Shown piece after piece: positions 39,001 to 64,000 of a DNA stretch of 64,000 bases. The stretch comes from Auanema rhodensis (taxonomy: Eukaryota > Animalia > Nematoda), in NCBI GenBank assembly GCA_964057225.1, contig OZ059898.1, forward strand, positions 372,001 to 436,000, in the 5' to 3' direction. Every line of letters begins with the position of its first letter. Positions within the stretch are counted from its first letter, which is position 1. Both the position numbers and the translations under genes were made by a program. The notes below the pieces were generated by a model. That model saw nothing but the letters and a program-made list of their open reading frames with translations. It was not told the origin of the DNA and searched no databases.

Positions 39001-42000
39001 TTACCATGAACCAATATCAATAAAAATTTGTTTTTAGACTAATATGGACATGGGGAATTTAATTTTGAAAACCGCATCTCTTTATCTTTCACGTGAAGCG
39101 AGTTACATACCAAGTGCACATCACGTGTACATTTAATTAGCATAAATTAAAGTTCACGTAAATTTCAAAGTCATTGTTACCATGAACCAATATCAATAAA
39201 AATTTGTTTTTAGACTAATATGGACATGGGGAATCTAATTTTGAAAACCGCATCTCTTTATCTTTCACGTGAAGCGAGTTACATACCAAGTGCACATCAC
39301 GTGTACATTTAATTAGCATAAATTAAAGTTCACGTAAATTTCAAAGTCATGGTTACCATGCACCAATATCAATAAAAATTTGTTTTTAGACTAATATGGA
39401 CATGGGGAATCTAATTTTGAAAACTGCATCTCTTTATCTTTCACGTGAAGCGAGTTACATACCAAGTGCACATCACGTGTACATTTAATTAGCATAAATT
39501 AAAGTTCACGTAAATTTCAAAGTCATGGTTACCATGAAGCAATATCAATAAAAATTTGTTTTTAGACTAATATGGACATGGGGAATCTAATTTTGAAAAC
39601 CGCATCTCTTTATCTTTCACGTGAAGCGAGTTACATACCAAGTGCACATCACGTGTACATTTAATTAGCATAAATTAAAGTTCACGTAAATTTCAAAGTC
39701 ATGGTTACCATGAAGCAATATCAATAAAAATTTGTTTTTAGACTAATATGGACATGGGGAATCTAATTTTGAAAACCTCATCTCTTTATCTTTCACGTGA
39801 AGCGAGTTACATACCAAGTGCTTATCACGTGTACATTTAATTAGCATAAATTAAAGTTCACGTAAATTTCAAAGTCATGGTTACCATGAACCAATATCAA
39901 TAAAAATTTGTTTTTAGACTAATATGGACATGGGGAATCTAATTTTGAAAACCGCATCTCTTTATCTTTCACGTGAAGCGAGTTACATACCAAGTGCACA
40001 TCACGTGTACATTTAATTAGCATAAATTAAAGTTCACGTAAATTTCAAAGTCATGGTTACCATGAACCAATATCAATAAAAATTTGTTTTTAGACTAATA
40101 TGGACATGGGGAATCTAATTTTGAAAACCGCATCTCTTTATCTTTCACGTGAAGCGAGTTACATACCAAGTGCACATCACGTGTACATTTAATTAGCATA
40201 AATTAAAGTTCACGTAAATTTCAAAGTCATGGTTACCATGAACCAATATCAATAAAAATTTGTTTTTAGACTAATATGGACATGGGGAATCTAATTTTGA
40301 AAACCGCATCTCTTTATCTTTCACGTGAAGCGAGTTACATACCAAGTGCACATCACGTGTACATTTAATTAGCATAAATTAAAGTTCACGTAAATTTCAA
40401 AGTCATGGTTACCATGCACCAATATCAATAAAAATTTGTTTTTAGACTAATATGGACATGGGGAATCTAATTTTGAAAACCTCATCTCTTTATCTTTCAC
40501 GTGAAGCGAGTTACATACCAAGTGCACATCACGTGTACATTTAATTAGCATAAATTAAAGTTCACGTAAATTTCAAAGTCATGGTTACCATGAAGCAATA
40601 TCAATAAAAATTTGTTTTTAGACTAATATGGACATGGGGAATCTAATTTTGAAAACCGCATCTCTTTATCTTTCACGTGAAGCGAGTTACATACCAAGTG
40701 CACATCACGTGTACATTTAATTAGCATAAATTAAAGTTCACGTAAATTTCAAAGTCATGGTTACCATGCACCAATATCAATAAAAATTTGTTTTTAGACT
40801 AATATGGACATGGGGAATCTAATTTTGAAAACCGCATCTCTTTATCTTTCACGTGAAGCGAGTTACATACCAAGTGCACATCACGTGTACATTTAATTAG
40901 CATAAATTAAAGTTCACGTAAATTTCAAAGTCATGGTTACCATGAACCAATATCAATAAAAATTTGTTTTTAGACTAATATGGACATGGGGAATCTAATT
41001 TTGAAAACCGCATCTCTTTATCTTTCACGTGAAGCGAGTTACATACCAAGTGCACATCACGTGTACATTTAATTAGCATAAATTAAAGTTCACGTAAATT
41101 TCAAAGTCATGGTTACCATGAACCAATATCAATAAAAATTTGTTTTTAGACTAATATGGACATGGGGAATCTAATTTTGAAAACCGCATCTCTTTATCTT
41201 TCACGTGAAGCGAGTTACATACCAAGTGCACATCACGTGTACATTTAATTAGCATAAATTAAAGTTCACGTAAATTTCAAAGTCATGGTTACCATGCACC
41301 AATATCAATAAAAATTTGTTTTTAGACTAATATGGACATGGGGAATCTAATTTTGAAAACCGCATCTCTTTATCTTTCACGTGAAGCGAGTTACATACCT
41401 AGTGCACATCACGTGTTCATTTAATTAGCATAAATTAAAGTTCACGTAAATTTCAAAGTCATGGTTACCATGCACCAATATCAATAAAAATTTGTTTTTA
41501 GACTAATATGGACATGGGGAATCTAATTTTGAAAACCGCATCTCTTTATCTTTCACGTGAAGCGAGTTACATACCAAGTGCACATCACGTGTACATTTAA
41601 TTAGCATAAATTAAAGTTCACGTAAATTTCAAAGTCATGGTTACCATGAACCAATATCAATAAAAATTTGTTTTTAGACTAATATGGACATGGGGAATTT
41701 AATTTTGAAAACCGCATCTCTTTATCTTTCACGTGAAGCGAGTTACATACCAAGTGCACATCACGTGTACATTTAATTAGCATAAATTAAAGTTCACGTA
41801 AATTTCAAAGTCATGGTTACCATGAACCAATATCAATAAAAATTTGTTTTTAGACTAATATGGACATGGGGAATCTAATTTTGAAAACCGCATCTCTTTA
41901 TCTTTCACGTGAAGCGAGTTACATACCAAGTGCACATCACGTGTACATTTAATTAGCATAAATTAAAGTTCACGTAAATTTCAAAGTCATGGTTACCATG

Positions 42001-45000
42001 CACCAATATCAATAAAAATTTGTTTTTAGACTAATATGGACATGGGGAATCTAATTTTGAAAACTGCATCTCTTTATCTTTCACGTGAAGCGAGTTACAT
42101 ACCAAGTGCACATCACGTGTACATTTAATTAGCATAAATTAAAGTTCACGTAAATTTCAAAGTCATGGTTACCATGAAGCAATATCAATAAAAATTTGTT
42201 TTTAGACTAATATGGACATGGGGAATCTAATTTTGAAAACCGCATCTCTTTATCTTTCACGTGAAGCGAGTTACATACCAAGTGCACATCACGTGTACAT
42301 TTAATTAGCATAAATTAAAGTTCACGTAAATTTCAAAGTCATGGTTACCATGAAGCAATATCAATAAAAATTTGTTTTTAGACTAATATGGACATGGGGA
42401 ATCTAATTTTGAAAACCTCATCTCTTTATCTTTCACGTGAAGCGAGTTACATACCAAGTGCTTATCACGTGTACATTTAATTAGCATAAATTAAAGTTCA
42501 CGTAAATTTCAAAGTCATGGTTACCATGAACCAATATCAATAAAAATTTGTTTTTAGACTAATATGGACATGGGGAATCTAATTTTGAAAACCGCATCTC
42601 TTTATCTTTCACGTGAAGCGAGTTACATACCAAGTGCACATCACGTGTACATTTAATTAGCATAAATTAAAGTTCACGTAAATTTCAAAGTCATGGTTAC
42701 CATGAACCAATATCAATAAAAATTTGTTTTTAGACTAATATGGACATGGGGAATCTAATTTTGAAAACCGCATCTCTTTATCTTTCACGTGAAGCGAGTT
42801 ACATACCAAGTGCACATCACGTGTACATTTAATTAGCATAAATTAAAGTTCACGTAAATTTCAAAGTCATGGTTACCATGAACCAATATCAATAAAAATT
42901 TGTTTTTAGACTAATATGGACATGGGGAATCTAATTTTGAAAACCGCATCTCTTTATCTTTCACGTGAAGCGAGTTACATACCAAGTGCACATCACGTGT
43001 ACATTTAATTAGCATAAATTAAAGTTCACGTAAATTTCAAAGTCATGGTTACCATGCACCAATATCAATAAAAATTTGTTTTTAGACTAATATGGACATG
43101 GGGAATCTAATTTTGAAAACCGCATCTCTTTATCTTTCACGTGAAGCGAGTTACATACCTAGTGCACATCACGTGTTCATTTAATTAGCATAAATTAAAG
43201 TTCACGTAAATTTCAAAGTCATGGTTACCATGCACCAATATCAATAAAAATTTGTTTTTAGACTAATATGGACATGGGGAATCTAATTTTGAAAACCGCA
43301 TCTCTTTATCTTTCACGTGAAGCGAGTTACATACCAAGTGCACATCACGTGTACATTTAATTAGCATAAATTAAAGTTCACGTAAATTTCAAAGTCATGG
43401 TTACCATGAACCAATATCAATAAAAATTTGTTTTTAGACTAATATGGACATGGGGAATTTAATTTTGAAAACCGCATCTCTTTATCTTTCACGTGAAGCG
43501 AGTTACATACCAAGTGCACATCACGTGTACATTTAATTAGCATAAATTAAAGTTCACGTAAATTTCAAAGTCATGGTTACCATGCACCAATATCAATAAA
43601 AATTTGTTTTTAGACTAATATGGACATGGGGAATCTAATTTTGAAAACCGCATCTCTTTATCTTTCACGTGAAGCGAGTTACATACCTAGTGCACATCAC
43701 GTGTTCATTTAATTAGCATAAATTAAAGTTCACGTAAATTTCAAAGTCATGGTTACCATGCACCAATATCAATAAAAATTTGTTTTTAGACTAATATGGA
43801 CATGGGGAATCTAATTTTGAAAACCGCATCTCTTTATCTTTCACGTGAAGCGAGTTACATACCAAGTGCACATCACGTGTACATTTAATTAGCATAAATT
43901 AAAGTTCACGTAAATTTCAAAGTCATGGTTACCATGAACCAATATCAATAAAAATTTGTTTTTAGACTAATATGGACATGGGGAATTTAATTTTGAAAAC
44001 CGCATCTCTTTATCTTTCACGTGAAGCGAGTTACATACCAAGTGCACATCACGTGTACATTTAATTAGCATAAATTAAAGTTCACGTAAATTTCAAAGTC
44101 ATTGTTACCATGAACCAATATCAATAAAAATTTGTTTTTAGACTAATATGGACATGGGGAATCTAATTTTGAAAACCGCATCTCTTTATCTTTCACGTGA
44201 AGCGAGTTACATACCAAGTGCACATCACGTGTACATTTAATTAGCATAAATTAAAGTTCACGTAAATTTCAAAGTCATGGTTACCATGCACCAATATCAA
44301 TAAAAATTTGTTTTTAGACTAATATGGACATGGGGAATCTAATTTTGAAAACTGCATCTCTTTATCTTTCACGTGAAGCGAGTTACATACCAAGTGCACA
44401 TCACGTGTACATTTAATTAGCATAAATTAAAGTTCACGTAAATTTCAAAGTCATGGTTACCATGAAGCAATATCAATAAAAATTTGTTTTTAGACTAATA
44501 TGGACATGGGGAATCTAATTTTGAAAACCGCATCTCTTTATCTTTCACGTGAAGCGAGTTACATACCAAGTGCACATCACGTGTACATTTAATTAGCATA
44601 AATTAAAGTTCACGTAAATTTCAAAGTCATGGTTACCATGAAGCAATATCAATAAAAATTTGTTTTTAGACTAATATGGACATGGGGAATCTAATTTTGA
44701 AAACCTCATCTCTTTATCTTTCACGTGAAGCGAGTTACATACCAAGTGCTTATCACGTGTACATTTAATTAGCATAAATTAAAGTTCACGTAAATTTCAA
44801 AGTCATGGTTACCATGAACCAATATCAATAAAAATTTGTTTTTAGACTAATATGGACATGGGGAATCTAATTTTGAAAACCGCATCTCTTTATCTTTCAC
44901 GTGAAGCGAGTTACATACCAAGTGCACATCACGTGTACATTTAATTAGCATAAATTAAAGTTCACGTAAATTTCAAAGTCATGGTTACCATGAACCAATA

Positions 45001-48000
45001 TCAATAAAAATTTGTTTTTAGACTAATATGGACATGGGGAATCTAATTTTGAAAACCGCATCTCTTTATCTTTCACGTGAAGCGAGTTACATACCAAGTG
45101 CACATCACGTGTACATTTAATTAGCATAAATTAAAGTTCACGTAAATTTCAAAGTCATGGTTACCATGAACCAATATCAATAAAAATTTGTTTTTAGACT
45201 AATATGGACATGGGGAATCTAATTTTGAAAACCGCATCTCTTTATCTTTCACGTGAAGCGAGTTACATACCAAGTGCACATCACGTGTACATTTAATTAG
45301 CATAAATTAAAGTTCACGTAAATTTCAAAGTCATGGTTACCATGCACCAATATCAATAAAAATTTGTTTTTAGACTAATATGGACATGGGGAATCTAATT
45401 TTGAAAACCGCATCTCTTTATCTTTCACGTGAAGCGAGTTACATACCTAGTGCACATCACGTGTTCATTTAATTAGCATAAATTAAAGTTCACGTAAATT
45501 TCAAAGTCATGGTTACCATGCACCAATATCAATAAAAATTTGTTTTTAGACTAATATGGACATGGGGAATCTAATTTTGAAAACCGCATCTCTTTATCTT
45601 TCACGTGAAGCGAGTTACATACCAAGTGCACATCACGTGTACATTTAATTAGCATAAATTAAAGTTCACGTAAATTTCAAAGTCATGGTTACCATGAACC
45701 AATATCAATAAAAATTTGTTTTTAGACTAATATGGACATGGGGAATTTAATTTTGAAAACCGCATCTCTTTATCTTTCACGTGAAGCGAGTTACATACCA
45801 AGTGCACATCACGTGTACATTTAATTAGCATAAATTAAAGTTCACGTAAATTTCAAAGTCATGGTTACCATGAACCAATATCAATAAAAATTTGTTTTTA
45901 GACTAATATGGACATGGGGAATCTAATTTTGAAAACCGCATCTCTTTATCTTTCACGTGAAGCGAGTTACATACCAAGTGCACATCACGTGTACATTTAA
46001 TTAGCATAAATTAAAGTTCACGTAAATTTCAAAGTCATGGTTACCATGCACCAATATCAATAAAAATTTGTTTTTAGACTAATATGGACATGGGGAATCT
46101 AATTTTGAAAACTGCATCTCTTTATCTTTCACGTGAAGCGAGTTACATACCAAGTGCACATCACGTGTACATTTAATTAGCATAAATTAAAGTTCACGTA
46201 AATTTCAAAGTCATGGTTACCATGAAGCAATATCAATAAAAATTTGTTTTTAGACTAATATGGACATGGGGAATCTAATTTTGAAAACCGCATCTCTTTA
46301 TCTTTCACGTGAAGCGAGTTACATACCAAGTGCACATCACGTGTACATTTAATTAGCATAAATTAAAGTTCACGTAAATTTCAAAGTCATGGTTACCATG
46401 AAGCAATATCAATAAAAATTTGTTTTTAGACTAATATGGACATGGGGAATCTAATTTTGAAAACCGCATCTCTTTATCTTTCACGTGAAGCGAGTTACAT
46501 ACCAAGTGCACATCACGTGTACATTTAATTAGCATAAATTAAAGTTCACGTAAATTTCAAAGTCATGGTTACCATGAACCAATATCAATAAAAATTTGTT
46601 TTTGACTAATATGGACATGGGGAATCTAATTTTGGAAACCGCATCTCTTTATCTTTCACGTGAAGCGAGTTACATACCAAGTGCACATCACGTGTACATT
46701 TAATTAGCATAAATTAAAGTTCACGTAAATTTCAAAGTCATGGTTACCATGAACCAATATCAATAAAAATTTGTTTTTAGACTAATATGGACATGGGGAA
46801 TCTAATTTTGAAAACCGCATCTCTTTATCTTTCACGTGAAGCGAGTTACATACCAAGTGCACATCACGTGTACATTTAATTAGCATAAATTAAAGTTCAC
46901 GTAAATTTCAAAGTCATGGTTACCATGAACCAATATCAATAAAAATTTGTTTTTAGACTAATATGGACATGGGGAATCTAATTTTGAAAACCGCATCTCT
47001 TTATCTTTCACGTGAAGCGAGTTACATACCAAGTGCACATCACGTGTACATTTAATTAGCATAAATTAAAGTTCACGTAAATTTCAAAGTCATGGTTACC
47101 ATGCACCAATATCAATAAAAATTTGTTTTTAGACTAATATGGACATGGGGAATCTAATTTTGAAAACCGCATCTCTTCATCTTTCACGTGAAGCGAGTTA
47201 CATACCAAGTGCACATCACGTGTACATTTAATTAGCATAAATTAAAGTTCACGTAAATTTCAAAGTCATGGTTACCATGCACCAATATCAATAAAAATTT
47301 GTTTTTAGACTAATATGGACATGGGGAATCTAATTTTGAAAACCGCATCTCTTTATCTTTCACGTGAAGCGAGTTACATACCTAGTGCACATCACGTGTT
47401 CATTTAATTAGCATAAATTAAAGTTCACGTAAATTTCAAAGTCATGGTTACCATGCACCAATATCAATAAAAATTTGTTTTTAGACTAATATGGACATGG
47501 GGAATCTAATTTTGAAAACCGCATCTCTTTATCTTTCACGTGAAGCGAGTTACATACCAAGTGCACATCACGTGTACATTTAATTAGCATAAATTAAAGT
47601 TCACGTAAATTTCAAAGTCATGGTTACCATGCACCAATATTAATAAAAATTTGTTTTTAGACTAATATGGACATGGGGAATCTAATTTTGAAAACCGCAT
47701 CTCTTTATCTTTCACGTGAAGCGAGTTACATACCTAGTGCACATCACGTGTTCATTTAATTAGCATAAATTAAAGTTCACGTAAATTTCAAAGTCATGGT
47801 TACCATGCACCAATATCAATAAAAATTTGTTTTTAGACTAATATGGACATGGGGAATCTAATTTTGAAAACCGTATCTCTTTATCTTTCACGTGAAGCGA
47901 GTTACATACCTAGTGCACATCACGTGTTCATTTAATTAGCATAAATTAAAGTTCACGTAAATTTCAAAGTCATGGTTACCATGCACCAATATCAATAAAA

Positions 48001-49857
48001 ATTTGTTTTTAGACTAATATGGACATGGGGAATCTAATTTTGAAAACCGCATCTCTTTATCTTTCACGTGAAGCGAGTTACATACCAAGTGCACATCACG
48101 TGTACATTTAATTAGCATAAATTAAAGTTCACGTAAATTTCAAAGTCATGGTTACCATGAACCAATATCAATAAAAATTTGTTTTTAGACTAATATGGAC
48201 ATGGGGAATCTAATTTTGAAAACCGCATCTCTTTATCTTTCACGTGAAGCGAGTTACATACCAAGTGCACATCACGTGTACATTTAATTAGCATAAATTA
48301 AAGTTCACGTAAATTTCAAAGTCATGGTTACCATGCACCAATATCAATAAAAATTTGTTTTTAGACTAATATGGACATGGGGAATCTAATTTTGAAAACC
48401 GCATCTCTTTATCTTTCACGTGAAGCGAGTTACATACCAAGTGCACATCACGTGTACATTTAATTAGCATAAATTAAAGTTCACGTAAATTTCAAAGTCA
48501 TGGTTACCATGAAGCAATATCAATAAAAATTTGTTTTTAGACTAATATGGACATGGGGAATCTAATTTTGAAAACCGCATCTCTTTATCTTTCACGTGAA
48601 GCGAGTTACATACCAAGTGCACATCACGTGTACATTTAATTAGCATAAATTAAAGTTCACGTAAATTTCAAAGTCATGGTTACCATGAAGCAATATCAAT
48701 AAAAATTTGTTTTTAGACTAATATGGACATGGGGAATCTAATTTTGAAAACCGCATCTCTTTATCTTTCACGTGAAGCGAGTTACATACCAAGTGCACAT
48801 CACGTGTACATTTAATTAGCATAAATTAAAGTTCACGTAAATTTCAAAGTCATGGTTACCATGAACCAATATCAAAAAAAATTTGTTTTTAGACCAATAT
48901 GGACATGGGGAATCTAATTTTGAAAACCGCATCTCTTTATCTTTCACGTGAAGCGAGTTACATACCAAGTGCACATCACGTGTACATTTAATTAGCATAA
49001 ATTAAAGTTCACGTAAATTTCAAAGTCATGGTTACCATGCACCAATATCAATAAAAATTTGTTTTTAGACTAATATGGACATGGGGAATCTAATTTTGAA
49101 AACCGCATCTCTTTATCTTTCACGTGAAGCGAGTTACATACCAAGTGCACATCACGTGTACATTTAATTAGCATAAATTAAAGTTCACGTAAATTTCAAA
49201 GTCATGGTTACCATGAACCAATATCAATAAAAATTTGTTTTTAGACTAATATGGACATGGGGAATCTAATTTTGAAAACCGCATCTCTTTATCTTTCACG
49301 TGAAGCGAGTTACATACCAAGTGCACATCACGTGTACATTTAATTAGCATAAATTAAAGTTCACGTAAATTTCAAAGTCATGGTTACCATGAACCAATAT
49401 CAATAAAAATTTGTTTTTAGACTAATATGGAGATGGGGAATCTAATTTTGAAAACCGCATCTCTTTATCTTTCACGTGAAGCGAGTTACATACCAAGTGC
49501 ACATCACGTGTACATTTAATTAGCATAAATTAAAGTTCACGTAAAATTCAAAGTCATGGTTACCATGCACCAATATCAATAAAAATTTGTTTTTAGACTA
49601 ATATGGACATGGGGAATCTAATTTTGAAAACCGCATCTCTTTATCTTTCACGTGAAGCGAGTTACATACCAAGTGCACATCACGTGTACATTTAATTAGC
49701 ATAAATTAAAGTTCACGTAAATTTCAAAGTCATGGTTACCATGCACCAATATCAATAAAAATTTGTTTTTGACTAATATGGACATGGGGAATCTAATTTT
49801 GGAAACCGCATCTCTTTATCTTTCACGTGCAGCGAGTTACATACCAAGAGCACATCA
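1..49857. repeat. 176-bp tandem satellite array, left arm (~283 monomers, continues beyond window start)
   Basis: The unit GCATCTCTTTATCTTTCACGTGAAGCGAGTTACATACCAAGTGCACATCACGTGTACATTTAATTAGCATAAATTAAAGTTCACGTAAATTTCAAAGTCATGGTTACCATG(A/C)ACCAATATCAATAAAAATTTGTTTTTAGACTAATATGGACATGGGGAATCTAATTTTGAAAACC recurs at 1, 177, 353 and so on. All copies are in the same orientation, usually with only a few substitutions per copy and very rare 1-2 bp indels. Confidence 0.99.
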
Positions 49858-49860
49858 TTC
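49855..49860 (+). promoter_or_regulatory. Initiator-like TCATTC at the element 5' junction (possible transcription start of an internal Pol II promoter)
   Basis: TCATTC matches the invertebrate Inr consensus TCAKTY and straddles the satellite/LINE junction. LINEs with internal promoters commonly begin at an Inr. The motif is short and no clear DPE was found. Confidence 0.35.
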
Positions 49861-49943
49861 CGCGATTGTCGACTCCTGCTCGTGTCTCTCTGTATCCCAT
49901 AATGCCGGACTGGTTTTGCAAGGTACGCTCTCTTTTTTTTTTC

Positions 49944-50022
49944 CTTCTTCTCTTTTTTTTATCTTTCTTCAACTTTCTTCTTCTCTTTTTTTTATCTTTC
50001 TTCAACTTTCTTCTTCTCTTTT
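49944..50022 (+). repeat. 33-bp pyrimidine-rich tandem repeat (~2.4 copies) in the LINE 5' UTR
   Basis: CTTCTTCTCTTTTTTTTATCTTTCTTCAACTTT occurs at 49944-49976 and 49977-50009, with a partial copy at 50010-50022. It appears as an 11-aa periodicity in the overlapping spurious ORFs. Confidence 0.9.
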
Positions 50023-50041
50023 CTTTTCTTCCTGTTATTTC

Positions 50042-50066
50042 ATATATATATATATATTTTTTTTTT
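50042..50066 (+). repeat. (AT)8 microsatellite followed by a T-run in the LINE 5' UTR
   Basis: ATATATATATATATAT followed by TTTTTTTTT, read directly. Confidence 0.9.
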
Positions 50067-50091
50067 ATTTTCTCTGCTCTTTCACTTAACT

Positions 50092-51159
50092 ATGTCTCCC
50101 GTAACTAACGAGTTTCTTACTACTGCTCTCGAATCACTTTCTGACTCCCTACATAATTCTTTTGCTGAATTATCAGTACAAATAAAAAATGAGCTCAGTA
50201 GTATTAAAACCGCAGTTGCAAAGCATGACTCCCGTATAACTTTTATAGAAACCGATTTCAAATCTCGTTTCGAAAAGTTAGAGAAAAAGTTAGCTCAACT
50301 TTCTCTCACCAGTACTAACACACTCTCAAATTCACCCTCTTTGCTCTCTTCCTCCAATGTTGCATGTCAAATTCAAAAAATTAGATCAGAAGAGACAAAG
50401 TATGATTATCGATGTAAGAGAGCACTCTGGTTCCGTGTACCGGTCTCTTCCTCGGATTTACCTTCTGACCCTACTTCTTTACTTAAACTGGTCATTGAAA
50501 AATCCAACGACGCTACTTTGTCTAGTCTGATCAATACTAATCAAATAACTATTGCACGCTGTATCCTCAAATCTAAATCTCCCGGTCCACTCATCATCAC
50601 GTGTCCATCGGTTGAATTGCGTGATAAAATTATGACATCTATCAAAACGAATAAAACTAAATGTTTTGAATCTTTATCCAAAACTTTCATACGTCGCGAC
50701 TATCTTCCTTTTGAAATTCAACTGGAAAAGAACCTTCGTGAGGAAGCTAAAGAAAAAAATAAAAACAACACTAAGTCCGTCTTTTTGGTACGAGATCTCC
50801 GACTCATTGAAGTTTTCCGTAATTCGACCGATTCTCCAAATTCCCAAATAGCTCCTGTCCCTGCTTGTAACCAAACTCCCAAATCACCATGCCTTCACAC
50901 TGCTCCTTTATTAACACCACACTCTCAAACACTCACGTCTCCAATTCTTTTATCTAGCCCCCCTTGTAAATCTGGTAGATTAAGCCGATCGAAGGATAGA
51001 CAGAATCGCACGTCGAAAGATAAACGTTCTTCTGTTAGCCCAAGACGACGCAAAAATCCACCACGATCTGCAAAGTTAACCTCAGATCAAATAACCAGGT
51101 CTGTTAGCATGAACCCTGCATCTCAACGTGTCGCGTCTGACAAAATGTCCTTTCGTTAA
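50092..51159 (+). CDS. LINE ORF1 protein (355 aa): N-terminal coiled coil, probable RRM/CTD-like core, Ser/Pro-rich then Arg/Lys/Ser-rich tail
   Basis: Uninterrupted ATG..TAA ORF upstream of ORF2. Heptad-like N-terminus (LSVQIKNELSSIK...FEKLEKKLAQL). The segment PLIITC...RDKIM...FIRRDY...EKNLREEAKEKN...FLVRDLRL resembles invertebrate CR1/L2 ORF1 C-terminal regions (recognised by eye, not searched). No CCHC knuckle or PHD finger seen. Confidence 0.85.
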   Translation: MSPVTNEFLTTALESLSDSLHNSFAELSVQIKNELSSIKTAVAKHDSRITFIETDFKSRFEKLEKKLAQLSLTSTNTLSNSPSLLSSSNVACQIQKIRSEETKYDYRCKRALWFRVPVSSSDLPSDPTSLLKLVIEKSNDATLSSLINTNQITIARCILKSKSPGPLIITCPSVELRDKIMTSIKTNKTKCFESLSKTFIRRDYLPFEIQLEKNLREEAKEKNKNNTKSVFLVRDLRLIEVFRNSTDSPNSQIAPVPACNQTPKSPCLHTAPLLTPHSQTLTSPILLSSPPCKSGRLSRSKDRQNRTSKDKRSSVSPRRRKNPPRSAKLTSDQITRSVSMNPASQRVASDKMSFR

Positions 51160-53983
51160 CATTGTCTCGTCCTCAACCCCTCTTGTCTCTGCTAACCCTA
51201 CCAGCTTCTCAGTTCAGTGTTTTAATGCACGATCCATCCTAAACAAACTTCATTCACTATCTCATGTTATTTCCCTATCCTCTCCTGATATAATTGCTAT
51301 ATCAGAATCTTGGCTTTTTCCAGAGTTCGATTCCTACCTACTCCCGTGCAAAGATACTTACTCTATTTTTAGAGCCGATAGGTGTCTTTCACGTGGTGGT
51401 GGCGTTGTCCTCTATGTGAAAAGTCATGTCAAAGTCTGTCTCCTTTCCTGCTCTTCCCCTCAATCTTCCATACAATTTATTAACTTACTCATTCCTTCAC
51501 TCAATGCTGTTTTTTCATTGTGTTATCGTCCTCCAACAGCGTCTCATTCAGATTTCATTCTTTTTCTTTCTGATCTTCGTAAACAAATTTCTAGACGATC
51601 GTTCTTTCTAACAGGCGATCTTAATTTCCCTAAAATTAATTGGGATCTCGGTATTTGCTCACAACCTTGCTCCTCTAGTAAATCTATTCTTCAATTTCTC
51701 AATGACTGCTGTTCTTATCAGTTAGTAAAGTTCCCTACCAGAGGCAAGAACATTCTCGATTATGTTATCACGGATAACATATCTAGTGTAGTCAACATAG
51801 CTCGTTCTTCTCCCCTCGGTTCCTCGGATCATCATTCTGTTGTCTTCCATATTGTTTCAGACACTTCTCAGCTAGCTACTGCAATCAACTCTTCCGATAT
51901 TTCTTCCCCAGCAACACTTCCTATGTTTTCTAATCGTAATTTTCAAGCTGCCGATTACAACCTCATCAACCATAGACTAGCCAACATTGATTTTGCTAGT
52001 CATCTTTCCGGTCTCACTCCTTTAGACTCTTATTCCAAATTTATTCACATTCTTCACTCGGTCATTGATTGCTGCGTACCCAGGAAACAAGAAAGAAGAA
52101 AAAAGAAGATTGACCGAGATATTTTAAAACTCTCTTCTCACATAAACAAACTTAGTTCCTCTTATCATCATCATGATGAATCCCGCCGTAAAAAACTATC
52201 TCTTTCCCTTGATAAACTCATCAAGAATATATTGGCTTCTGAAGAGGAACGTATTGCTAACTATAACAATTCAAAACTTTTTTACCGTTTCTGCAGAACT
52301 CGTCTGGGCGGCAACACTTCAGATATCCCTGATCTCAAAATAGATAATAATTCTGTCTCGTCTGATTCTGACAAAGCTTCTATCTTTGCCAGTACCTTCT
52401 CTGTCCACCCTCTTTCTATCTCTTCAGCACATGCTCCTGTTTCCCCTTCTTCTGGTATCATCGATTTTATTGATGTTTCCCCTCTCAACGTCTACAAAAT
52501 TCTCTGTCAGTTACCTCTCCGGGTATCAACCTCTCCGGACGGAATTCCTTATTTTTTCCTAAAAAACTGTGCTTCTACTATTTCTCAGCCTCTAGCCTTT
52601 GTCTTTCACAATCTTCTTATTTCTTCCTCTTGCCCTGCTGACTGGAAAACAGCATGGATTCGTCCTGTTCTCAAATCAGGGCTTTCTTCAAACCCGGTTA
52701 ATTATCGCCCTATTTCTCTCACATCCAGTCTGTCTAAAGTTTTTGAACGTCTTCTCCGTTCACCTCTTCTTGATTTTGGTATTTCCTCCGGCTGTATTTC
52801 ACCTAATCAGTTTGCTTTTCTTCCAAAACGCAATACTGTATCGGCAATTCTTAGTAGTCATGTACTCTGGAGATCTTCAGTGGACAAGAAAAGACCTGTT
52901 TATGTTGCCTTCATTGACTTCTCCAAGGCTTTCGATCTTATAAATCATTCTGTTCTTTTAACTAAACTAAAATCAATTGGTATCGACGGCTGTATTCACT
53001 CCTTTCTCAAAAATTTCATTACTGATAGATCCTTCTCGGTATTGGTTAATTATTCTCTATCCGCCACAAATCGTTTGCCCTGTGGAGTTCCACAAGGGAC
53101 AGTTCTGGGTCCACTTCTTTTTCTATTTTACATAAATGACATCACATCAAACTTACCCGATGACGTGCATCCAACTCTCTATGCGGATGATCTTAAACTA
53201 AGCAGCACTAATCCTGTAAGTTTACAATTGGCCTTGGATAACCTGAAAAACTGGTGTCTATTAAACGGTATGAAGGTAAATACTACTAAATCTAAAGTTA
53301 TGATTATATCTAGTACTACTACATCAAGATTAAACACAATTTTCAAATTTGGCGACATCTCGTTAGCCACAGTAACAACGTACAAAGATCTTGGTGTATG
53401 TACTGACTATAATCTTTCTTTCAATAGCCATATAAATAGAATCTCTAACATCGCTGCTCACAAATGTCGTGTTATCTTGCGTTGTTTTTACTCAAGATCA
53501 CCTACCTTGATGTTTAAACTGTTTTGCTGCTATATCAGGCCTATTTTAGAATATGCCTCAGTTGTATGGTCCCCTCAAAATAACAAAGATAAAGCACGCA
53601 TTGAGTCCGTACAAAAAAAGTTCTTGAACGCTATTTTTAAGAGAGCCGAAATAGCTTTGGATTACAAAAACCAGCTATTGTTTCTTGGAGCTAAGGAACT
53701 ATCTTTTAGAAGACTGTTAATTGATCTCGTCTTCTATCACAATCAGATAACTAAAAACATTCCAGAAAACAGCCTTAATTTTTTTACTATCAAGCACTAC
53801 GCACATTCACTTCGTAGGCATCTATGGAATGTTGAATATCCTGATCTTTGGAGAAGCGAAACAAGAACTGGAATTGAATACAGAGCTATTCAAATCTGGA
53901 ACGCTCTTCCTGAAAACATCATTCAACTGAGAAACACCTCCAGCTTCAGAAAACACCTATCTGTTATTTTAAATGATTTTTAA
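51128..53983 (+). CDS. LINE ORF2: apurinic-like endonuclease + reverse transcriptase (frame open from 51113; no AUG before 51923, true start uncertain)
   Basis: APE motifs CFNARS, AISESWL, RADR..GGGV, CYRPP, TGDLNFP, PTRGKNILDY and SDHH (~51218-51840). RT motifs SPDGIP, NYRPISLTS..SKVFE, QFAF, DFSKAFD, GVPQG, YADD (53180-53191) and KDLGV. No internal stops or frameshifts. The track start at 51128 is a GTG. Confidence 0.96.
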   Translation: MSRLTKCPFVNIVSSSTPLVSANPTSFSVQCFNARSILNKLHSLSHVISLSSPDIIAISESWLFPEFDSYLLPCKDTYSIFRADRCLSRGGGVVLYVKSHVKVCLLSCSSPQSSIQFINLLIPSLNAVFSLCYRPPTASHSDFILFLSDLRKQISRRSFFLTGDLNFPKINWDLGICSQPCSSSKSILQFLNDCCSYQLVKFPTRGKNILDYVITDNISSVVNIARSSPLGSSDHHSVVFHIVSDTSQLATAINSSDISSPATLPMFSNRNFQAADYNLINHRLANIDFASHLSGLTPLDSYSKFIHILHSVIDCCVPRKQERRKKKIDRDILKLSSHINKLSSSYHHHDESRRKKLSLSLDKLIKNILASEEERIANYNNSKLFYRFCRTRLGGNTSDIPDLKIDNNSVSSDSDKASIFASTFSVHPLSISSAHAPVSPSSGIIDFIDVSPLNVYKILCQLPLRVSTSPDGIPYFFLKNCASTISQPLAFVFHNLLISSSCPADWKTAWIRPVLKSGLSSNPVNYRPISLTSSLSKVFERLLRSPLLDFGISSGCISPNQFAFLPKRNTVSAILSSHVLWRSSVDKKRPVYVAFIDFSKAFDLINHSVLLTKLKSIGIDGCIHSFLKNFITDRSFSVLVNYSLSATNRLPCGVPQGTVLGPLLFLFYINDITSNLPDDVHPTLYADDLKLSSTNPVSLQLALDNLKNWCLLNGMKVNTTKSKVMIISSTTTSRLNTIFKFGDISLATVTTYKDLGVCTDYNLSFNSHINRISNIAAHKCRVILRCFYSRSPTLMFKLFCCYIRPILEYASVVWSPQNNKDKARIESVQKKFLNAIFKRAEIALDYKNQLLFLGAKELSFRRLLIDLVFYHNQITKNIPENSLNFFTIKHYAHSLRRHLWNVEYPDLWRSETRTGIEYRAIQIWNALPENIIQLRNTSSFRKHLSVILNDF
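51148..51159 (+). promoter_or_regulatory. Candidate programmed +1 ribosomal frameshift site UCC_UUU_CGU_UAA at the end of ORF1
   Basis: The last ORF1 codons are TCC TTT CGT TAA. A +1 slip (UUU to UUC) puts GTT AAC ATT (V-N-I) in the ORF2 frame. The heptamer-plus context is the same as the influenza PA-X shift site UCC_UUU_CGU. Confidence 0.6.
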
Positions 53984-54470
53984 CCTGCTCTGATTAATGT
54001 AACTTGAAATCTTGCTCATGTATATTTTTTTCCATATTACTAGCCTGCTAGCCTCACTGCATGTTATAGTTAGACAGTTTCCTAGTTAACCTCCGAGACC
54101 TGTTACTATGCTCCGAATCCTATAGACATTAGTCATATGGATCAAGCGTTAGTTACCTCTTACTGTCAGAACGGGCTCGACTCATGTCAAGAGTTCCACC
54201 GCACCTGTCAGAATACTACAGAGGTCAGTGATCTACACTGAACAACTTTTCTCTCCTCTACCTAACTAGAACTTCGAAACCTTAACACACCAGTAGTGCT
54301 GTACGCTATCATAATAAAAGGAAATATGCACGACTCGTTTATTTACATATATCTAGCCAATTATTATGTATGTTTGTATTGTAAGGTTCTTCTGTATATC
54401 TACAATTTTCTCTATTTATTAACATTGTTTCCGCTTTTAACCTGTGATTCGAACAATAAACCCGTTCAAA
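53984..54470 (+). other. LINE 3' UTR (487 bp)
   Basis: Non-satellite sequence between the ORF2 stop and the resumption of the satellite. Confidence 0.85.
54455..54460 (+). terminator. AATAAA polyadenylation-like signal 10 nt before the element end
   Basis: ...GATTCGAAC AATAAA CCCGTTCAAA|CGTG... Confidence 0.6.
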
Positions 54471-57400
54471 CGTGTACATTTAATTAGCATAAATTAAAGT
54501 TCACGTAAATTTCAAAGTCATATGGTTACCATGCACCAATATCAATAAAAATTTGTTTTTAGACTAATATGGACATGGGGAATCTAATTTTGAAAACCGC
54601 ATCTCTTTATCTTTCACGTGAAGCGAGTTACATACCAAGTGCACATCACGTGTACATTTAATTAGCATAAATTAAAGTTCACGTAAATTTCAAAGTCATG
54701 GTTACCATGAACCAATATCAATAAAAATTTGTTTTTAGACTAATATGGACATGGGGAATCTAATTTTGAAAACCGCATCTCTTTATCTTTCACGTGAAGC
54801 GAGTTACATACCAAGTGCACATCACGTGTACATTTAATTAGCATAAATTAAAGTTCACGTAAATTTCAAAGTCATGGTTACCATGAACCAATATCAATAA
54901 AAATTTGTTTTTAGACTAATATGTACATGGGGAATCTAATTTTGAAAACCGCATCTCTTTATCTTTCACGTGAAGCGAGTTACATACCAAGTGCACATCA
55001 CGTGTACATTTAATTAGCATAAATTAAAGTTCACGTAAATTTCAAAGTCATGGTTACCATGCACCAATATCAATAAAAATTCGTTTTTAGACTAATATGG
55101 ACATGGGGAATCTAATTTTGAAAACCGCATCTCTTCATCTTTCACGTGAAGCGAGTTACATACCAAGTGCACATCACGTGTACATTTAATTAGCATAAAT
55201 TAAAGTTCACGTAAATTTCAAAGTCATGGTTACCATGCACCAATATCAATAAAAATTTGTTTTTAGACTAATATGGACATGGGGAATCTAATTTTGAAAA
55301 CCGCATCTCTTCATCTTTCACGTGAAGCGAGTTACATACCAAGTGCACATCACGTGTACATTTAATTAGCATAAATTAAAGTTCACGTAAAATTCAAAGT
55401 CATGGTTACCATGCACCAATATCAAAAAAATTTGTTTTTAGACTAATATGGACATGGGGAATCTAATTTTGAAAACCGCATCTCTTTATCTTTCACGTGA
55501 AGCGAGTTACATACCAAGTGCACATCACGTGTACATTTAATTAGCATAAATTAAAGTTCACGTAAATTTCAAAGTCATGGTTACCTTGCACCAATATCAA
55601 TAAAAATTTGTTTTTAGACTAATATGGACATGGGGAATCTAATTTTGAAAACCGCATCTCTTTATCTTTCACGTGAAGCGAGTTACATACCAAGTGCACA
55701 TCACGTGTACATTTAATTAGCATAAATTAAAGTTCACGTAAATTTCAAAGTCATGGTTACCATGAACCAATATCAATAAAAATTTGTTTTTAGACTAATA
55801 TGGACATGGGGAATCTAATTTTGAAAACCGCATCTCTTTATCTTTCACGTGAAGCGAGTTACATACCAAGTGCACATCACGTGTACATTTAATTAGCATA
55901 AATTAAAGTTCACGTAAATTTCAAAGTCATGGTTACCATGCACCAATATCAATAAAAATTTGTTTTTAGACTAATATGGACATGGGGAATCTAATTTTGA
56001 AAACCGCATCTCTTTATCTTTCACGTGAAGCGAGTTACATACCAAGTGCACATCACGTGTACATTTAATTAGCATAAATTAAAGTTCACGTAAATTTCAA
56101 AGTCATGGTTACCATGCACCAATATCAATAAAAATTTGTTTTTAGACTAATATGGACATGGGGAATCTAATTTTGAAATTCGCATCTCTTTATCTTTCAC
56201 GTGAAGCGAGTTACATACCAAGTGCACATCACGTGTACATTTAATTAGCATAAATTAAAGTTCACGTAAATTTCAAAGTCATGGTTACCATGAAGCAATA
56301 TCAATAAAAATTTGTTTTTGGACTAATATGGACATGGGGAATCTAATTTTGAAAACCGCATCTCTTTATCTTTCACGTGAAGCGAGTTACATACCAAGGG
56401 CACATCACGTGTACATTTAATTAGCATAAATTAAAGTTCACGTAAATTTCAAAGTCATGGTTACCATGAACCAATATCAATAAAAATTTGTTTTTAGACC
56501 AATATGGACATGGGGAATCTAATTTTGAAAACCGCATCTCTTTATCTTTCACGTGAAGCGAGTTACATACCAAGTGCACATCACGTGTACATTTAATTAG
56601 CATAAATTAAAGTTCACGTAAATTTCAAAGTCATGGTTACCATGCACCAATATCAATAAAAATTTGTTTTTAGACTAATATGGACATGGGGAATCTAATT
56701 TTGAAAACCGCATCTCTTTATCTTTCACGTGAAGCGAGTTACATACCAAGTGCACATCACGTGTACATTTAATTAGCATAAATTAAAGTTCACGTAAATT
56801 TCAAAGTCATGGTTACCATGCACCAATATCAATAAAAATTTGTTTTTAGACTAATATGGACATGGGAAATCTAATTTTGAAAACCGCATCTCTTTATCTT
56901 TCACGTGAAGCGAGTTACATACCAAGTGCACATCACGTGTACATTTAATTAGCATAAATTAAAGTTCACGTAAATTTCAAAGTCATGGTTACCATGAACC
57001 AATATCAATAAAAATTTGTTTTTAGACTAATATGGACATGGGGAATCTAATTTTGAAAACCGCATCTCTTCATCTTTCACGTGAAGCGAGTTACATACCA
57101 AGTGCACATCACGTGTACATTTAATTAGCATAAATTAAAGTTCACGTAAATTTCAAAGTCATGGTTACCATGCACCAATATCAATAAAAATTTGTTTTTA
57201 GACTAATATGGACATGGGGAATCTAATTTTGAAAACCGCATCTCTTTATCTTTCACGTGAAGCGAGTTACATACCTAGTGCACATCACGTGTTCATTTAA
57301 TTAGCATAAATTAAAGTTCACGTAAATTTCAAAGTCATGGTTACCATGCACCAATATCAATAAAAATTTGTTTTTAGACTAATATGGACATGGGGAATCT

Positions 57401-60400
57401 AATTTTGAAAACCGCATCTCTTTATCTTTCACGTGAAGCGAGTTACATACCAAGTGCACATCACGTGTACATTTAATTAGCATAAATTAAAGTTCACGTA
57501 AATTTCAAAGTCATGGTTACCATGAACCAATATCAATAAAAATTTGTTTTTAGACTAATATGGACATGGGGAATCTAATTTTGAAAACCGCATCTCTTTA
57601 TCTTTCACGTGAAGCGAGTTACATACCAAGTGCACATCACGTGAACATTTAATTAGCATAATTTAAAGTTCACGTAAATTTCAAAGTCATGGTTACCATG
57701 CACCAATATCAATAAAAATTTGTTTTTAGACTAATATGGACATGGGGAATCTAATTTTGAAAATCGCATCTCTTTATCTTTCACGTGAAGCGAGTTACAT
57801 ACCAAGTGCACATCACGTGTACATTTAATTAGCATAAATTAAAGTTCACGTAAATTTCAAAGTCATGGTTACCATGAAGCAATATCAATAAAAATTTGTT
57901 TTTAGACTAATATGGACATGGGGAATCTAATTTTGAAAACCGCATCTCTTTATCTTTCACGTGAAGCGAGTTACATACCAAGTGCACATCACGTGTACAT
58001 TTAATTAGCATAAATTAAAGTTCACGTAAATTTCAAAGTCATGGTTACCATGAACCAATATCAATAAAAATTTGTTTTTAGACCAATATGGACATGGGGA
58101 ATCTAATTTTGAAAACCGCATCTCTTTATCTTTCACGTGAAGCGAGTTACATACCAAGTGCACATCACGTGTACATTTAATTAGCATAAATTAAAGTTCA
58201 CGTAAATTTCAAAGTCATGGTTACCATGCACCAATATCAATAAAAATTTGTTTTTAGACTAATATGGACATGGGGAATCTAATTTTGAAAACCGCATCTC
58301 TTTATCTTTCACGTGAAGCGAGTTACATACCAAGTGCACATCACGTGTACATTTAATTAGCATAAATTAAAGTTCACGTAAATTTCAAAGTCATGGTTAC
58401 CATGCACCAATATCAATAAAAATTTGTTTTTAGACTAATATGGACATGGGGAATCTAATTTTGAAAACCGCATCTCTTTATCTTTCACGTGAAGCGAGTA
58501 ACATACCAAGTGCACATCACGTGTACATTTAATTAGCATAAATTAAAGTTCACGTAAATTTCAAAGTCATGGTTACCATGCACCAATATCAATAAAAATT
58601 TGTTTTTAGACTAATATGGACATGGGGAATCTAATTTTGAAAACCGCATCTCTTTATCTTTCACGTGAAGCGAGTTACATACCAAGTGCACATCACGTGT
58701 ACATTTAATTAGCATAAATTAAAGTTCACGTAAATTTCAAAGTCATGGTTACCATGAAGCAATATCAATAAAAATTTGTTTTTAGACTAATATGGACATG
58801 GGGAATCTAATTTTGAAAACCGCATCTCTTTATCTTTCACGTGAAGCGAGTTACATACCAAGGGCACATCACGTGTACATTTAATTAGCATAAATTAAAG
58901 TTCACGTAAATTTCAAAGTCATGGTTACCATGAACCAATATCAATAAAAATTTGTTTTTAGACCAATATGGACATGGGGAATCTAATTTTGAAAACCGCA
59001 TCTCTTTATCTTTCACGTGAAGCGAGTTACATACCAAGTGCACATCACGTGTACATTTAATTAGCATAAATTAAAGTTCACGTAAATTTCAAAGTCATGG
59101 TTACCATGCACCAATATCAATAAAAATTTGTTTTTAGACTAATATGGACATGGGGAATCTAATTTTGAAAACCGCATCTCTTTATCTTTCACGTGAAGCG
59201 AGTTACATACCAAGTGCACATCACGTGTACATTTAATTAGCATAAATTAAAGTTCACGTAAATTTCAAAGTCATGGTTACCATGAACCAATATCAATAAA
59301 AATTTGTTTTTAGACCAATATGGACATGGGGAATCTAATTTTGAAAACCGCATCTCTTTATCTTTCACGTGAAGCGAGTTACATACCAAGTGCACATCAC
59401 GTGTACATTTAATTAGCATAAATTAAAGTTCACGTAAATTTCAAAGTCATGGTTACCATGCACCAATATCAATAAAAATTTGTTTTTAGACTAATATGGA
59501 CATGGGGAATCTAATTTTGAAAACCGCATCTCTTTATCTTTCACGTGAAGCGAGTTACATACCAAGTGCACATCACGTGTACATTTAATTAGCATAAATT
59601 AAAGTTCACGTAAATTTCAAAGTCATGGTTACCATGCACCAATATCAATAAAAATTTGTTTTTAGACTAATATGGACATGGGGAATCTAATTTTGAAAAC
59701 CGCATCTCTTTATCTTTCACGTGAAGCGAGTTACATACCAAGTGCACATCACGTGTACATTTAATTAGCATAAATTAAAGTTCACGTAAATTTCAAAGTC
59801 ATGGTTACCATGCACCAATATCAATAAAAATTTGTTTTTAGACTAATATGGACATGGGGAATCTAATTTTGAAAACCGCATCTCTTTATCTTTCACGTGA
59901 AGCGAGTTACATACCAAGTGCACATCACGTGTACATTTAATTAGCATAAATTAAAGTTCACGTAAATTTCAAAGTCATGGTTACCATGAACCAATATCAA
60001 TAAAAATTTGTTTTTAGACTAATATGGACATGGGGAATCTAATTTTGAAAACCGCATCTCTTTATCTTTCACGTGAAGCGAGTTACATACCAAGTGCACA
60101 TCACGTGTACATTTAATTAGCATAAATTAAAGTTCACGTAAATTTCAAAGTCATGGTTACCATGAACCAATATCAATAAAAATTTGTTTTTAGACTAATA
60201 TGGAGATGGGGAATCTAATTTTGAAAACCGCATCTCTTTATCTTTCACGTGAAGCGAGTTACATACCAAGTGCACATCACGTGTACATTTAATTAGCATA
60301 AATTAAAGTTCACGTAAAATTCAAAGTCATGGTTACCATGCACCAATATCAATAAAAATTTGTTTTTAGACTAATATGGACATGGGGAATCTAATTTTGA

Positions 60401-63400: not shown

Positions 63401-64000
63401 CTCTTTATCTTTCACGTGAAGCGAGTTACATACCAAGTGCACATCACGTGTACATTTAATTAGCATAAATTAAAGTTCACGTAAATTTCAAAGTCATGGT
63501 TACCATGCACCAATATCAATAAAAATTTGTTTTTGACTAATATGGACATGGGGAATCTAATTTTGGAAACCGCATCTCTTTATCTTTCACGTGAAGCGAG
63601 TTACATACCAAGTGCACATCACGTGTACATTTAATTAGCATAAATTAAAGTTCACGTAAATTTCAAAGTCATGGTTACCATGCACCAATATCAATAAAAA
63701 TTTGTTTTTAGACTAATATGGACATGGGGAATCTAATTTTGAAAACCGCATCTCTTTATCTTTCACGTGAAGCGAGTTACATACCAAGTGCACATCACGT
63801 GTACATTTAATTAGCATAAATTAAAGTTCACGTAAATTTCAAAGTCATGGTTACCATGCACCAATATCAATAAAAATTTGTTTTTAACTAATATGGACAT
63901 GGGGAATCTAATTTTGAAAACCGCATCTCTTTATCTTTCACGTGAAGCGAGTTACATACCAAGTGCACATCACGTGTACATTTAATTAGCATAAATTAAA
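54471..64000. repeat. 176-bp tandem satellite array, right arm (~54 monomers, continues beyond window end)
   Basis: Same monomer, orientation and register as the left arm. Confidence 0.99.

Follow-up and report, generated by a model that had tools for sequence, protein, structure and literature searches.

A candidate PA-X-type +1 frameshift site, UUU_C, at the ORF1/ORF2 junction of a CR1-like LINE and its relatives

The endonuclease and reverse transcriptase of a LINE present in Auanema rhodensis DNA are encoded in a frame (ORF2) that is +1 to ORF1, overlaps its end and offers its first AUG only beyond the endonuclease, and in the overlap ORF1 carries the tetramer UUU_C. The frame, the overlap, the lack of an AUG, the fixation of the site and the frame-specific conservation of UUU_C were established directly. 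We propose, with a probability of about 0.78, that the enzyme would be made by a programmed +1 frameshift at UUU_C, operating at a low level and giving a 1296-aa ORF1-ORF2 fusion. Since many distant relatives keep the core signal at the same place, an occasional +1 slip is the likely source of the enzyme. As judged by comparison, the UUU_C junction in LINEs is a real feature with good support, and the frameshifting itself is a proposal.

The window, that is, the whole stretch of 64,000 nt that was analysed, consists of an array of a 176-bp satellite interrupted once, by the LINE. The satellite is homogeneous, has 32% GC and amounts to about 59 kb in all; its unit picks up again exactly past the LINE, with a target duplication of 0-1 nt. 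The element and its surroundings are composed as follows.

1..49857, no strand: satellite array, left flank, 176-bp unit
49858..54470, + strand: full-length APE-type (CR1-like) LINE of 4613 nt, across which the satellite unit resumes
49858..50091, + strand: 5' UTR, pyrimidine-rich, with a single upstream ATG at 49902
50092..51159, + strand: ORF1, 355 aa, with a predicted coiled coil (aa 3-75), a predicted RRM-like domain (aa 100-196) and a disordered basic S/R/K/P tail
51113..53983, + strand: ORF2 frame from stop to stop, 956 codons, about 942-943 of them after the slip site
51221..51832, + strand: APE endonuclease domain (PF03372, E 6e-8; PF14529, E 3e-8; alignment)
52694..53305, + strand: reverse transcriptase domain (PF00078, E 2e-32), YADD at 53180
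53984..54470, + strand: 3' UTR of 487 nt with AATAAA close to its end and without a poly(A) tail
54471..64000, no strand: satellite array, right flank, 176-bp unit

The endonuclease motifs N, E, GDxN, D and SDH (the last at 51824) are all intact. By Pfam, ORF2 holds only the N-terminal APE domain and the reverse transcriptase, with no RNase H, in agreement with the layout of the CR1 clade; its best homologs are about 30% identical (search span 525-1673 aa), and the solved protein nearest to its reverse transcriptase is human L1 ORF2p (E 8e-15). The lack of a poly(A) tail and a short or absent target duplication, both seen here, are traits that we take to be typical of the CR1 clade. The label "CR1-like" presumably holds on the strength of sequence motifs and of the separation from RNase H-bearing elements, the ORF2 tree described below being one without a named CR1 reference. 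For ORF1, no Pfam match above the cut-off and no homolog by a word-based search were found, and a comparison with 39 ORF1s of other LINE loci, in which profiles were also compared, gave no significant match (best E 0.0097). The viral contigs searched gave no match, and in the Atlas unnamed clusters appeared at 0.90, with a lead to PF25298 on 12% of members. A single-sequence structure model of ORF1 (mean pLDDT 51.5) contains a coiled coil, followed by a beta-alpha domain and a basic, disordered tail. In this low-confidence model, aa 100-196 resemble human L1 ORF1p (2yko_A; Z 6.7, rmsd 3.5, 87 aligned), the sole structure covering the middle part of ORF1 among the best 50 rows, so that the two L1 proteins are the nearest solved ones to both ORFs. 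The ATG at 49902, the only one of the 5' UTR, opens an F/L-rich uORF of 68 codons that runs to 50108 and overlaps the start of ORF1; it could dampen ORF1 translation. At 49923 the same region has a plausible splice donor, AAG/GTACGC, which no AG follows before the ORF1 ATG.

At the junction, the following elements succeed one another.

51113..51159, + strand: ORF1/ORF2 overlap, 47 nt, ORF2 in +1 (from the reading frames)
51148..51156, + strand: candidate +1 shift site UCC_UUU_CGU, with the P-site tetramer UUU_C at 51151-51154
51157..51159, + strand: ORF1 stop UAA, one codon past the candidate site
51923..51925, + strand: first AUG of the ORF2 frame, 3' of the whole endonuclease

The original prediction had described this layout, and its particulars are borne out: ORF1 ends with TCC 51148, TTT 51151, CGT 51154 and TAA 51157; the ORF2 frame opens after the TGA at 51110-51112, is +1 to ORF1 and overlaps it by 47 nt; and its first ATG, at 51923, lies past both the Pfam endonuclease match (aa 37-240) and the SDH motif. 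This ATG is codon 271 counting from 51113, or 266 counting from the GTG at 51128. It lies 764 nt beyond the ORF1 stop, so an AUG near that stop, of the SART1 or L1 type, is not present. The length predicted for the slip product (354+942 = 1296 aa, about 146 kDa) agrees with our computation, and the predicted junction peptide came out the same. The window also displays what is expected of a PA-X-type site, namely a zero-frame UUU_C followed by a long +1 ORF, with UCC in the E site and a CGN codon in the A site. Computed from ORF1 codon usage, the probability of TCC TTT CGN anywhere in the 15-codon overlap is 3.5e-4, and that of the minimal TTT_C is 0.057. By these values a single copy lends some credence to the long motif but not to the short one, and the evidential weight has to come from the relatives. 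No RNA structure beyond that of shuffled sequences was found around the site (z -0.47 to +0.86). Two ORF1-frame ATGs, at 51109 and 51145, stand just 5' of the site; the second opens a four-codon mini-ORF that contains it, and ribosomes that restart there and then slip could produce ORF2 protein almost free of ORF1.

In the mechanism that we propose, the P-site tRNA-Phe would re-pair from UUU to UUC, helped by the E- and A-site codons, as reasoned from the influenza A case (PMC3498833), and GUU would be the next codon read. The available text of that paper reports for PA-X a +1 rate of 0.7-1.3% and detection of the junction peptide; by analogy, the slip in the LINE may occur at a rate near 1% (PMC3498833), from which a low ORF2:ORF1 ratio would follow.

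The relatives were collected with a pattern made of endonuclease residues only, which left the junction untouched. At least 137 loci were obtained, at least 119 on metagenome contigs (80 of the listed ones with long flanks) and 18 on genome contigs. A junction was considered callable when ORF1 had at least 200 codons, or at least 70 while being open to the fetched edge, and ended no more than 300 nt from the conserved Asn, overlapping or abutting ORF2. Among the matches listed, 63 of 137 junctions were callable (34 in +1, 14 in the same frame and 15 in -1) and 74 were uncallable. An in-frame TTT_C within the last 10 ORF1 codons was found in 25/34 of the +1 loci and in 2/29 of the others among the matches listed (Fisher 4.6e-8), the motif having been preset by the hypothesis while the ORF1 length rule and the 10-codon window were chosen after the junction tables had been seen. 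These rows are not independent, since the loci are related. Among the matches listed, the difference persisted after clustering at 70% (17/25 against 2/27; 6.7e-6) and at 50% (9/14 against 0/19), as well as when only ORF1s of at least 200 codons were kept (16/19 against 2/21). In the other two frames of the last ORF1 codons, TTT_C was not found among the matches listed (0/33 each); in ORF1 bodies it occurs in 21 of 4258 codons, and the observed count of 12/17 was attained by 0/5000 base shuffles and 0/5000 codon shuffles. A less favourable control was the last 10 codons of complete ORF2s, 5/26 of which contain TTT_C. The nine +1 loci, out of 34 among the matches listed, that do not have the site in the 10-codon window include one (L050) with UUU_C further upstream and two (L112, L123) with UUU_U.

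Two limits apply to this comparison. The nearest loci among the matches listed are just 30-34% identical to the window endonuclease, so no family of intermediate distance was seen. In addition, class calls from short flanks can err, as indicated by L003 and L083, which are 96% identical and were assigned to different classes; L081 shows only 86 ORF1 codons.

The original prediction had expected the PA-X motif to be conserved in relatives. What is conserved is its core, YYY_UUU_C, the tetramer UUU_C standing in most of the +1-frame loci (25/34 among the matches listed), while the exact UCC_UUU_CGU was found in 0/34 of the +1 loci among the matches listed. The E-site codon is TCT, CCT, CCC or TTT, hence pyrimidine-rich, in 15/17 representatives, and the A-site codon is any CNN, with UUU_CGN in 8/25 of the UUU_C loci among the matches listed. 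The exact PA-X 9-mer is the window family's version of a broader signal. Protein-level conservation of a Phe does not account for it: the Phe codons read in the overlap are TTC after T in 17/27 cases, compared with 57/511 in ORF2 bodies (p 2e-10), and the distance from this Phe to the conserved Asn ranges from 9 to 29 codons. The site is conserved beyond protein constraint. A pause at a rare codon is not supported, given that CGT is the commonest Arg codon of ORF1 (10/26; 16/49 in ORF2).

It could be thought that the stop codon drives the shift, in the manner of antizyme or Euplotes, with CGU in the P site and UAA in the A site, or that a polymerase loses one U by slippage. The UAA stands directly after the site in the window, and a stop is found one codon past UUU in 7/25 of the UUU_C loci among the matches listed. 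Over all these loci, however, the distance from UUU to the stop varies between 1 and 6 codons and moves between close relatives, as in L001 and L059, where TTT CAG is retained while the stop shifts; the sequence comparison suggests that the stop codon is not the signal. As for slippage, the T run is just 3 long, and it ends in ORF1 phase in 25/25 of the loci listed, which slippage does not require. We therefore regard this pair of explanations as improbable.

The fixation of the site was evaluated in public DNA runs, nine of which, from three studies, contain over half of the element's words. Contigs spanning the site were obtained from five runs (X1, X2, X5, X7 and X10, the last at depth 2) belonging to three studies, and none has a gap at the site. 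The form that would speak against a shift, TCC TTC GTT with one T fewer, was not seen in the contigs of these five runs, a check that used contigs and not raw reads and in which one run may be the window's own source. The candidate site is not a private insertion or an assembly error. In addition, X5 and X7 carry a second subfamily, which in X5 differs at 76 positions over 668 nt (about 89% identical) and in which UCC_UUU_CGU is unchanged, as are the ATGs at 51109 and 51145. Two segments are distinguished by this comparison.

51134..51161, + strand: 28-nt block without subfamily differences, against 15 differences in the rest of 51100-51200
51155..51202, + strand: variable linker from the site to the endonuclease, with 7 substitutions and a net 3-nt deletion in the second subfamily

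The deletion in the linker is made up of three one-base deletions that together preserve the ORF2 frame, and most of the variation between subfamilies lies at 51162-51196. The probability that the 12-nt motif escaped change in the second subfamily is 0.13, and that of the unchanged 28-nt block, whose bounds were drawn afterwards, is 0.005; taken alone, this conservation is modest evidence. The same runs also contain more distant families, whose likeness to the element is confined to the endonuclease motif at 51281-51317 and ends beyond it. Neither a form with one T fewer nor a lack of conservation among related families, the two sequence findings that the original prediction had named as contrary to it, was encountered, the UUU_C core being kept in the relatives and the site in the second subfamily. 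The prediction's interpretation is, to the extent that sequence can speak, supported.

These data also bear on a chance motif, or an originally single ORF that an insertion of one base split long ago, in a family that is now non-autonomous. The value of 0.057 for a minimal TTT_C leaves some room for chance. On the other hand, both ORFs are intact, the same arrangement occurs in two subfamilies about 11% apart and the motif is enriched in relatives with p between 1e-5 and 1e-8, so that this explanation, already largely refuted, is the least probable of those weighed.

A more serious competitor is termination-reinitiation without an AUG, in which ribosomes would stop at the UAA at 51157 and resume translation at a codon of the ORF2 frame, near-cognate or arbitrary (CUG 51137, AUU 51161 or another), releasing a free ORF2 protein as in human L1. 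According to the accessible parts of PMC1965478 and PMC5009743, the L1 ORF2 start tolerates any sense codon. The CTG at 51137 is the same in both subfamilies, whereas the CTG at 51116 and the GTG at 51128 are altered in the second one and the ATT at 51161 is AAT or ACT in contigs of X5, X7 and X10. Between 51115 and 51133, upstream of the site, four of the five subfamily differences occupy third positions of the ORF2 frame and the third positions of ORF1 have none, in contrast with 50980-51024, where ORF1 third positions are involved in 7/8 of the listed places; this bias would fit ORF2-frame coding upstream of the site, against the slip reading. In the relatives, however, the open stretch of the ORF2 frame ahead of the site is no longer than expected (28.1 codons compared with 30.0 in shuffles, and only 3 in L062), which makes the site itself the apparent start of ORF2 coding. 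Moreover, a stable downstream structure like that of SART1 was not found in the window (z +0.78 to +0.86), and reinitiation predicts neither a frame-locked UUU_C in +1 loci nor the distinct signals of the other frame classes (see below). Among the UUU_C loci listed, 11/25 have no usable AUG and 14/25 have a scattered ORF2-frame AUG 7-71 codons before the Asn; an ORF2 AUG within -30..+90 nt occurs in 6/34 of the +1 loci among the matches listed. We consider reinitiation unlikely, albeit the strongest of the competing explanations.

Splicing could also join the two frames, either by removal of a 58-nt GT-AG segment at 51155-51212 or from the donor at 49923, behind the ATG at 49902, to the AG at 51216-51217. 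The phases fit: removal of 51155-51212 fuses ORF1 to ORF2 in frame and deletes the stop, the AG is preceded by a pyrimidine-rich stretch, the segment includes the interval of highest variation between subfamilies, and the TTT CAG of several relatives resembles an acceptor. Against it, the donor GTTAAC matches the consensus poorly, no intron-less DNA copies were seen, and no joint or loose end at 51213/51218 appeared in four runs among the loose ends listed. Furthermore, relatives show no constraint on the letters that follow TTT_C and retain neither GT nor AG, and a signal for splicing would have no tie to the reading frame of ORF1. Splicing thus seems very doubtful, slightly more so than a stop-driven shift.

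The junctions that are not in +1 carry signals of their own. TGA-C is a leaky-stop context, and TGA_C at the ORF1 end was found in 13/14 of the same-frame loci and in 4/49 of the loci elsewhere, among the matches listed. The readthrough-type junctions, with a single TGA followed by C, are those of L003, L004, L008, L026, L028, L030, L045, L073, L079, L080, L128, L133 and L136. In the -1 class, a slippery heptamer X_XXY_YYZ was observed in 6/15 loci against 0/48 elsewhere, among the matches listed; it lies near the ORF1 stop in L019, L024, L047, L075, L103 and L134 and, outside the junction rule, in L002 and L014. The heptamers of the -1 junctions are U_UUA_AAC, U_UUU_UUA and A_AAA_AAC, and L071 has G_GUU_UUU. 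All three classes would yield an ORF1-ORF2 fusion. Three frame-specific signatures that predict one product are most simply understood as selection for a low-rate fusion of ORF1 and ORF2.

The class differs between close relatives, such as L026/L081 (86% over 87 aa), L039/L079 (63%) and L004/L010. Two junctions present two signals: in L004, a same-frame locus, TTT TTT C precedes the TGA-C by eight codons, and L001, in +1, has TTT CAG directly before TGA-C; these are possibly transitional states. In a fast FastTree run on ORF2 with 54 rows, the window ORF2 together with P0002 and P0005 is sister (support 0.974) to a clade (0.999) that contains all 13 other +1 UUU_C loci on the tree. In that clade +1 and same-frame junctions interleave, while three -1 loci and L017 stand apart. 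The tree requires 9 class changes on 32 labelled tips, compared with a shuffled mean of 13.2 and a minimum of 9. The window LINE would use one of three interchangeable routes in CR1-like LINEs, namely a +1 slip at UUU_C, readthrough at UGA-C and a -1 slip at X_XXY_YYZ, each of which would end in the same gag-pol-like fusion. That CR1-like LINEs as a rule make a Gag-Pol-like polyprotein, with lineages changing over between a +1 shift at YYY_UUU_C, readthrough at UGA-C and a -1 shift, is in our opinion somewhat probable, with less confidence than the proposal for the window LINE.

The closest known parallel is influenza A PA-X (PMC3498833), whose accessible text describes the same zero-frame 9-mer UCC_UUU_CGU, a long +1 ORF and the junction F-V; a downstream structure is neither needed there nor found in the window LINE. 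The differences are that the PA-X shift occurs mid-gene and makes a minor truncated protein, whereas in the LINE it would make an essential enzyme at the end of ORF1; that CGU is rare in influenza hosts and common in the window ORF1; and that the A site of the LINE relatives is relaxed to any CNN. A rare A-site codon as a frameshift helper has been proposed and called uncertain in the same source (PMC3498833), which also lists predicted sites of a related kind for chronic bee paralysis virus and for fijiviruses. In amalgaviruses, as stated in the available part of PMC5052127, a +1 slip at UUU_C is predicted to link a coiled-coil ORF1 with a polymerase ORF2; these are RNA viruses that prefer CGN, unlike the LINE loci. 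The proposed transframe site of ASXL1 (PMC5644247, partial text) shares the 9-mer, resides in a nuclear genome and was likewise argued from conservation, but concerns one cellular gene with an internal overlap and a short transframe product. The non-LTR Groups 1-3 of Paramecium (PMC5405496) are APE-type LINEs for which a +1 frameshift, reinitiation or readthrough was suggested from the ORF layout; they form a separate ciliate clade, and the available portion of that paper names no shift site and contains no conservation test by frame class. Human L1 and silkworm SART1 also have a bicistronic LINE RNA and a low ORF2 level (PMC5972666, PMC10275272, PMC10760644, PMC1965478); in the accessible sections of these papers, termination-reinitiation close to an AUG yields a free ORF2p, in contrast with the window LINE, where there is no such AUG and a fusion is predicted. 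The accessible parts of PMC1925062 and PMC7175516 hold nothing relevant.

In the literature covered by our search, which lay outside Repbase and older or subscription papers, no description of the UUU_C motif in LINEs was found. Repbase reports and older papers on T1/Q and nematode CR1 elements may already have postulated a frameshift.

The models of ORF2 translation reviewed in the available portions of the sources come from L1 and SART1, which bear an AUG, and leave open the case of LINEs lacking an ORF2 start codon. The present proposal supplies a named four-base site and a predicted junction peptide. If it is true, the PA-X class of +1 sites would extend beyond a few RNA viruses and a single proposed human gene to a large group of transposons, where dozens of E- and A-site variants found in nature could serve to deduce its rules. 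Were a polyprotein the rule among CR1-like LINEs, a signal of this type would rank with the most widely distributed recoding signals of animal genomes, and LINE particles would carry the enzyme tethered to an ORF1 subunit. A fused ORF1-ORF2 would alter the picture of the particle and its stoichiometry. In addition, CR1 copies that appear "frameshifted" may be intact, and the ORFs of repeat consensus sequences may be mis-started.

Two further observations were made among the collected loci. In L005, L009, L015, L060 and P0009, the endonuclease frame has a long extension that starts from its own Met, in place of a separate ORF1, and these are natural single-ORF forms; the extension of P0009 is Cys/His-rich, with a part that we take to be PHD-like. 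Finally, animal-type LINEs (L120-L137) appear at 18 places in bacterial and archaeal genome records, where they are likely host DNA within those assemblies.
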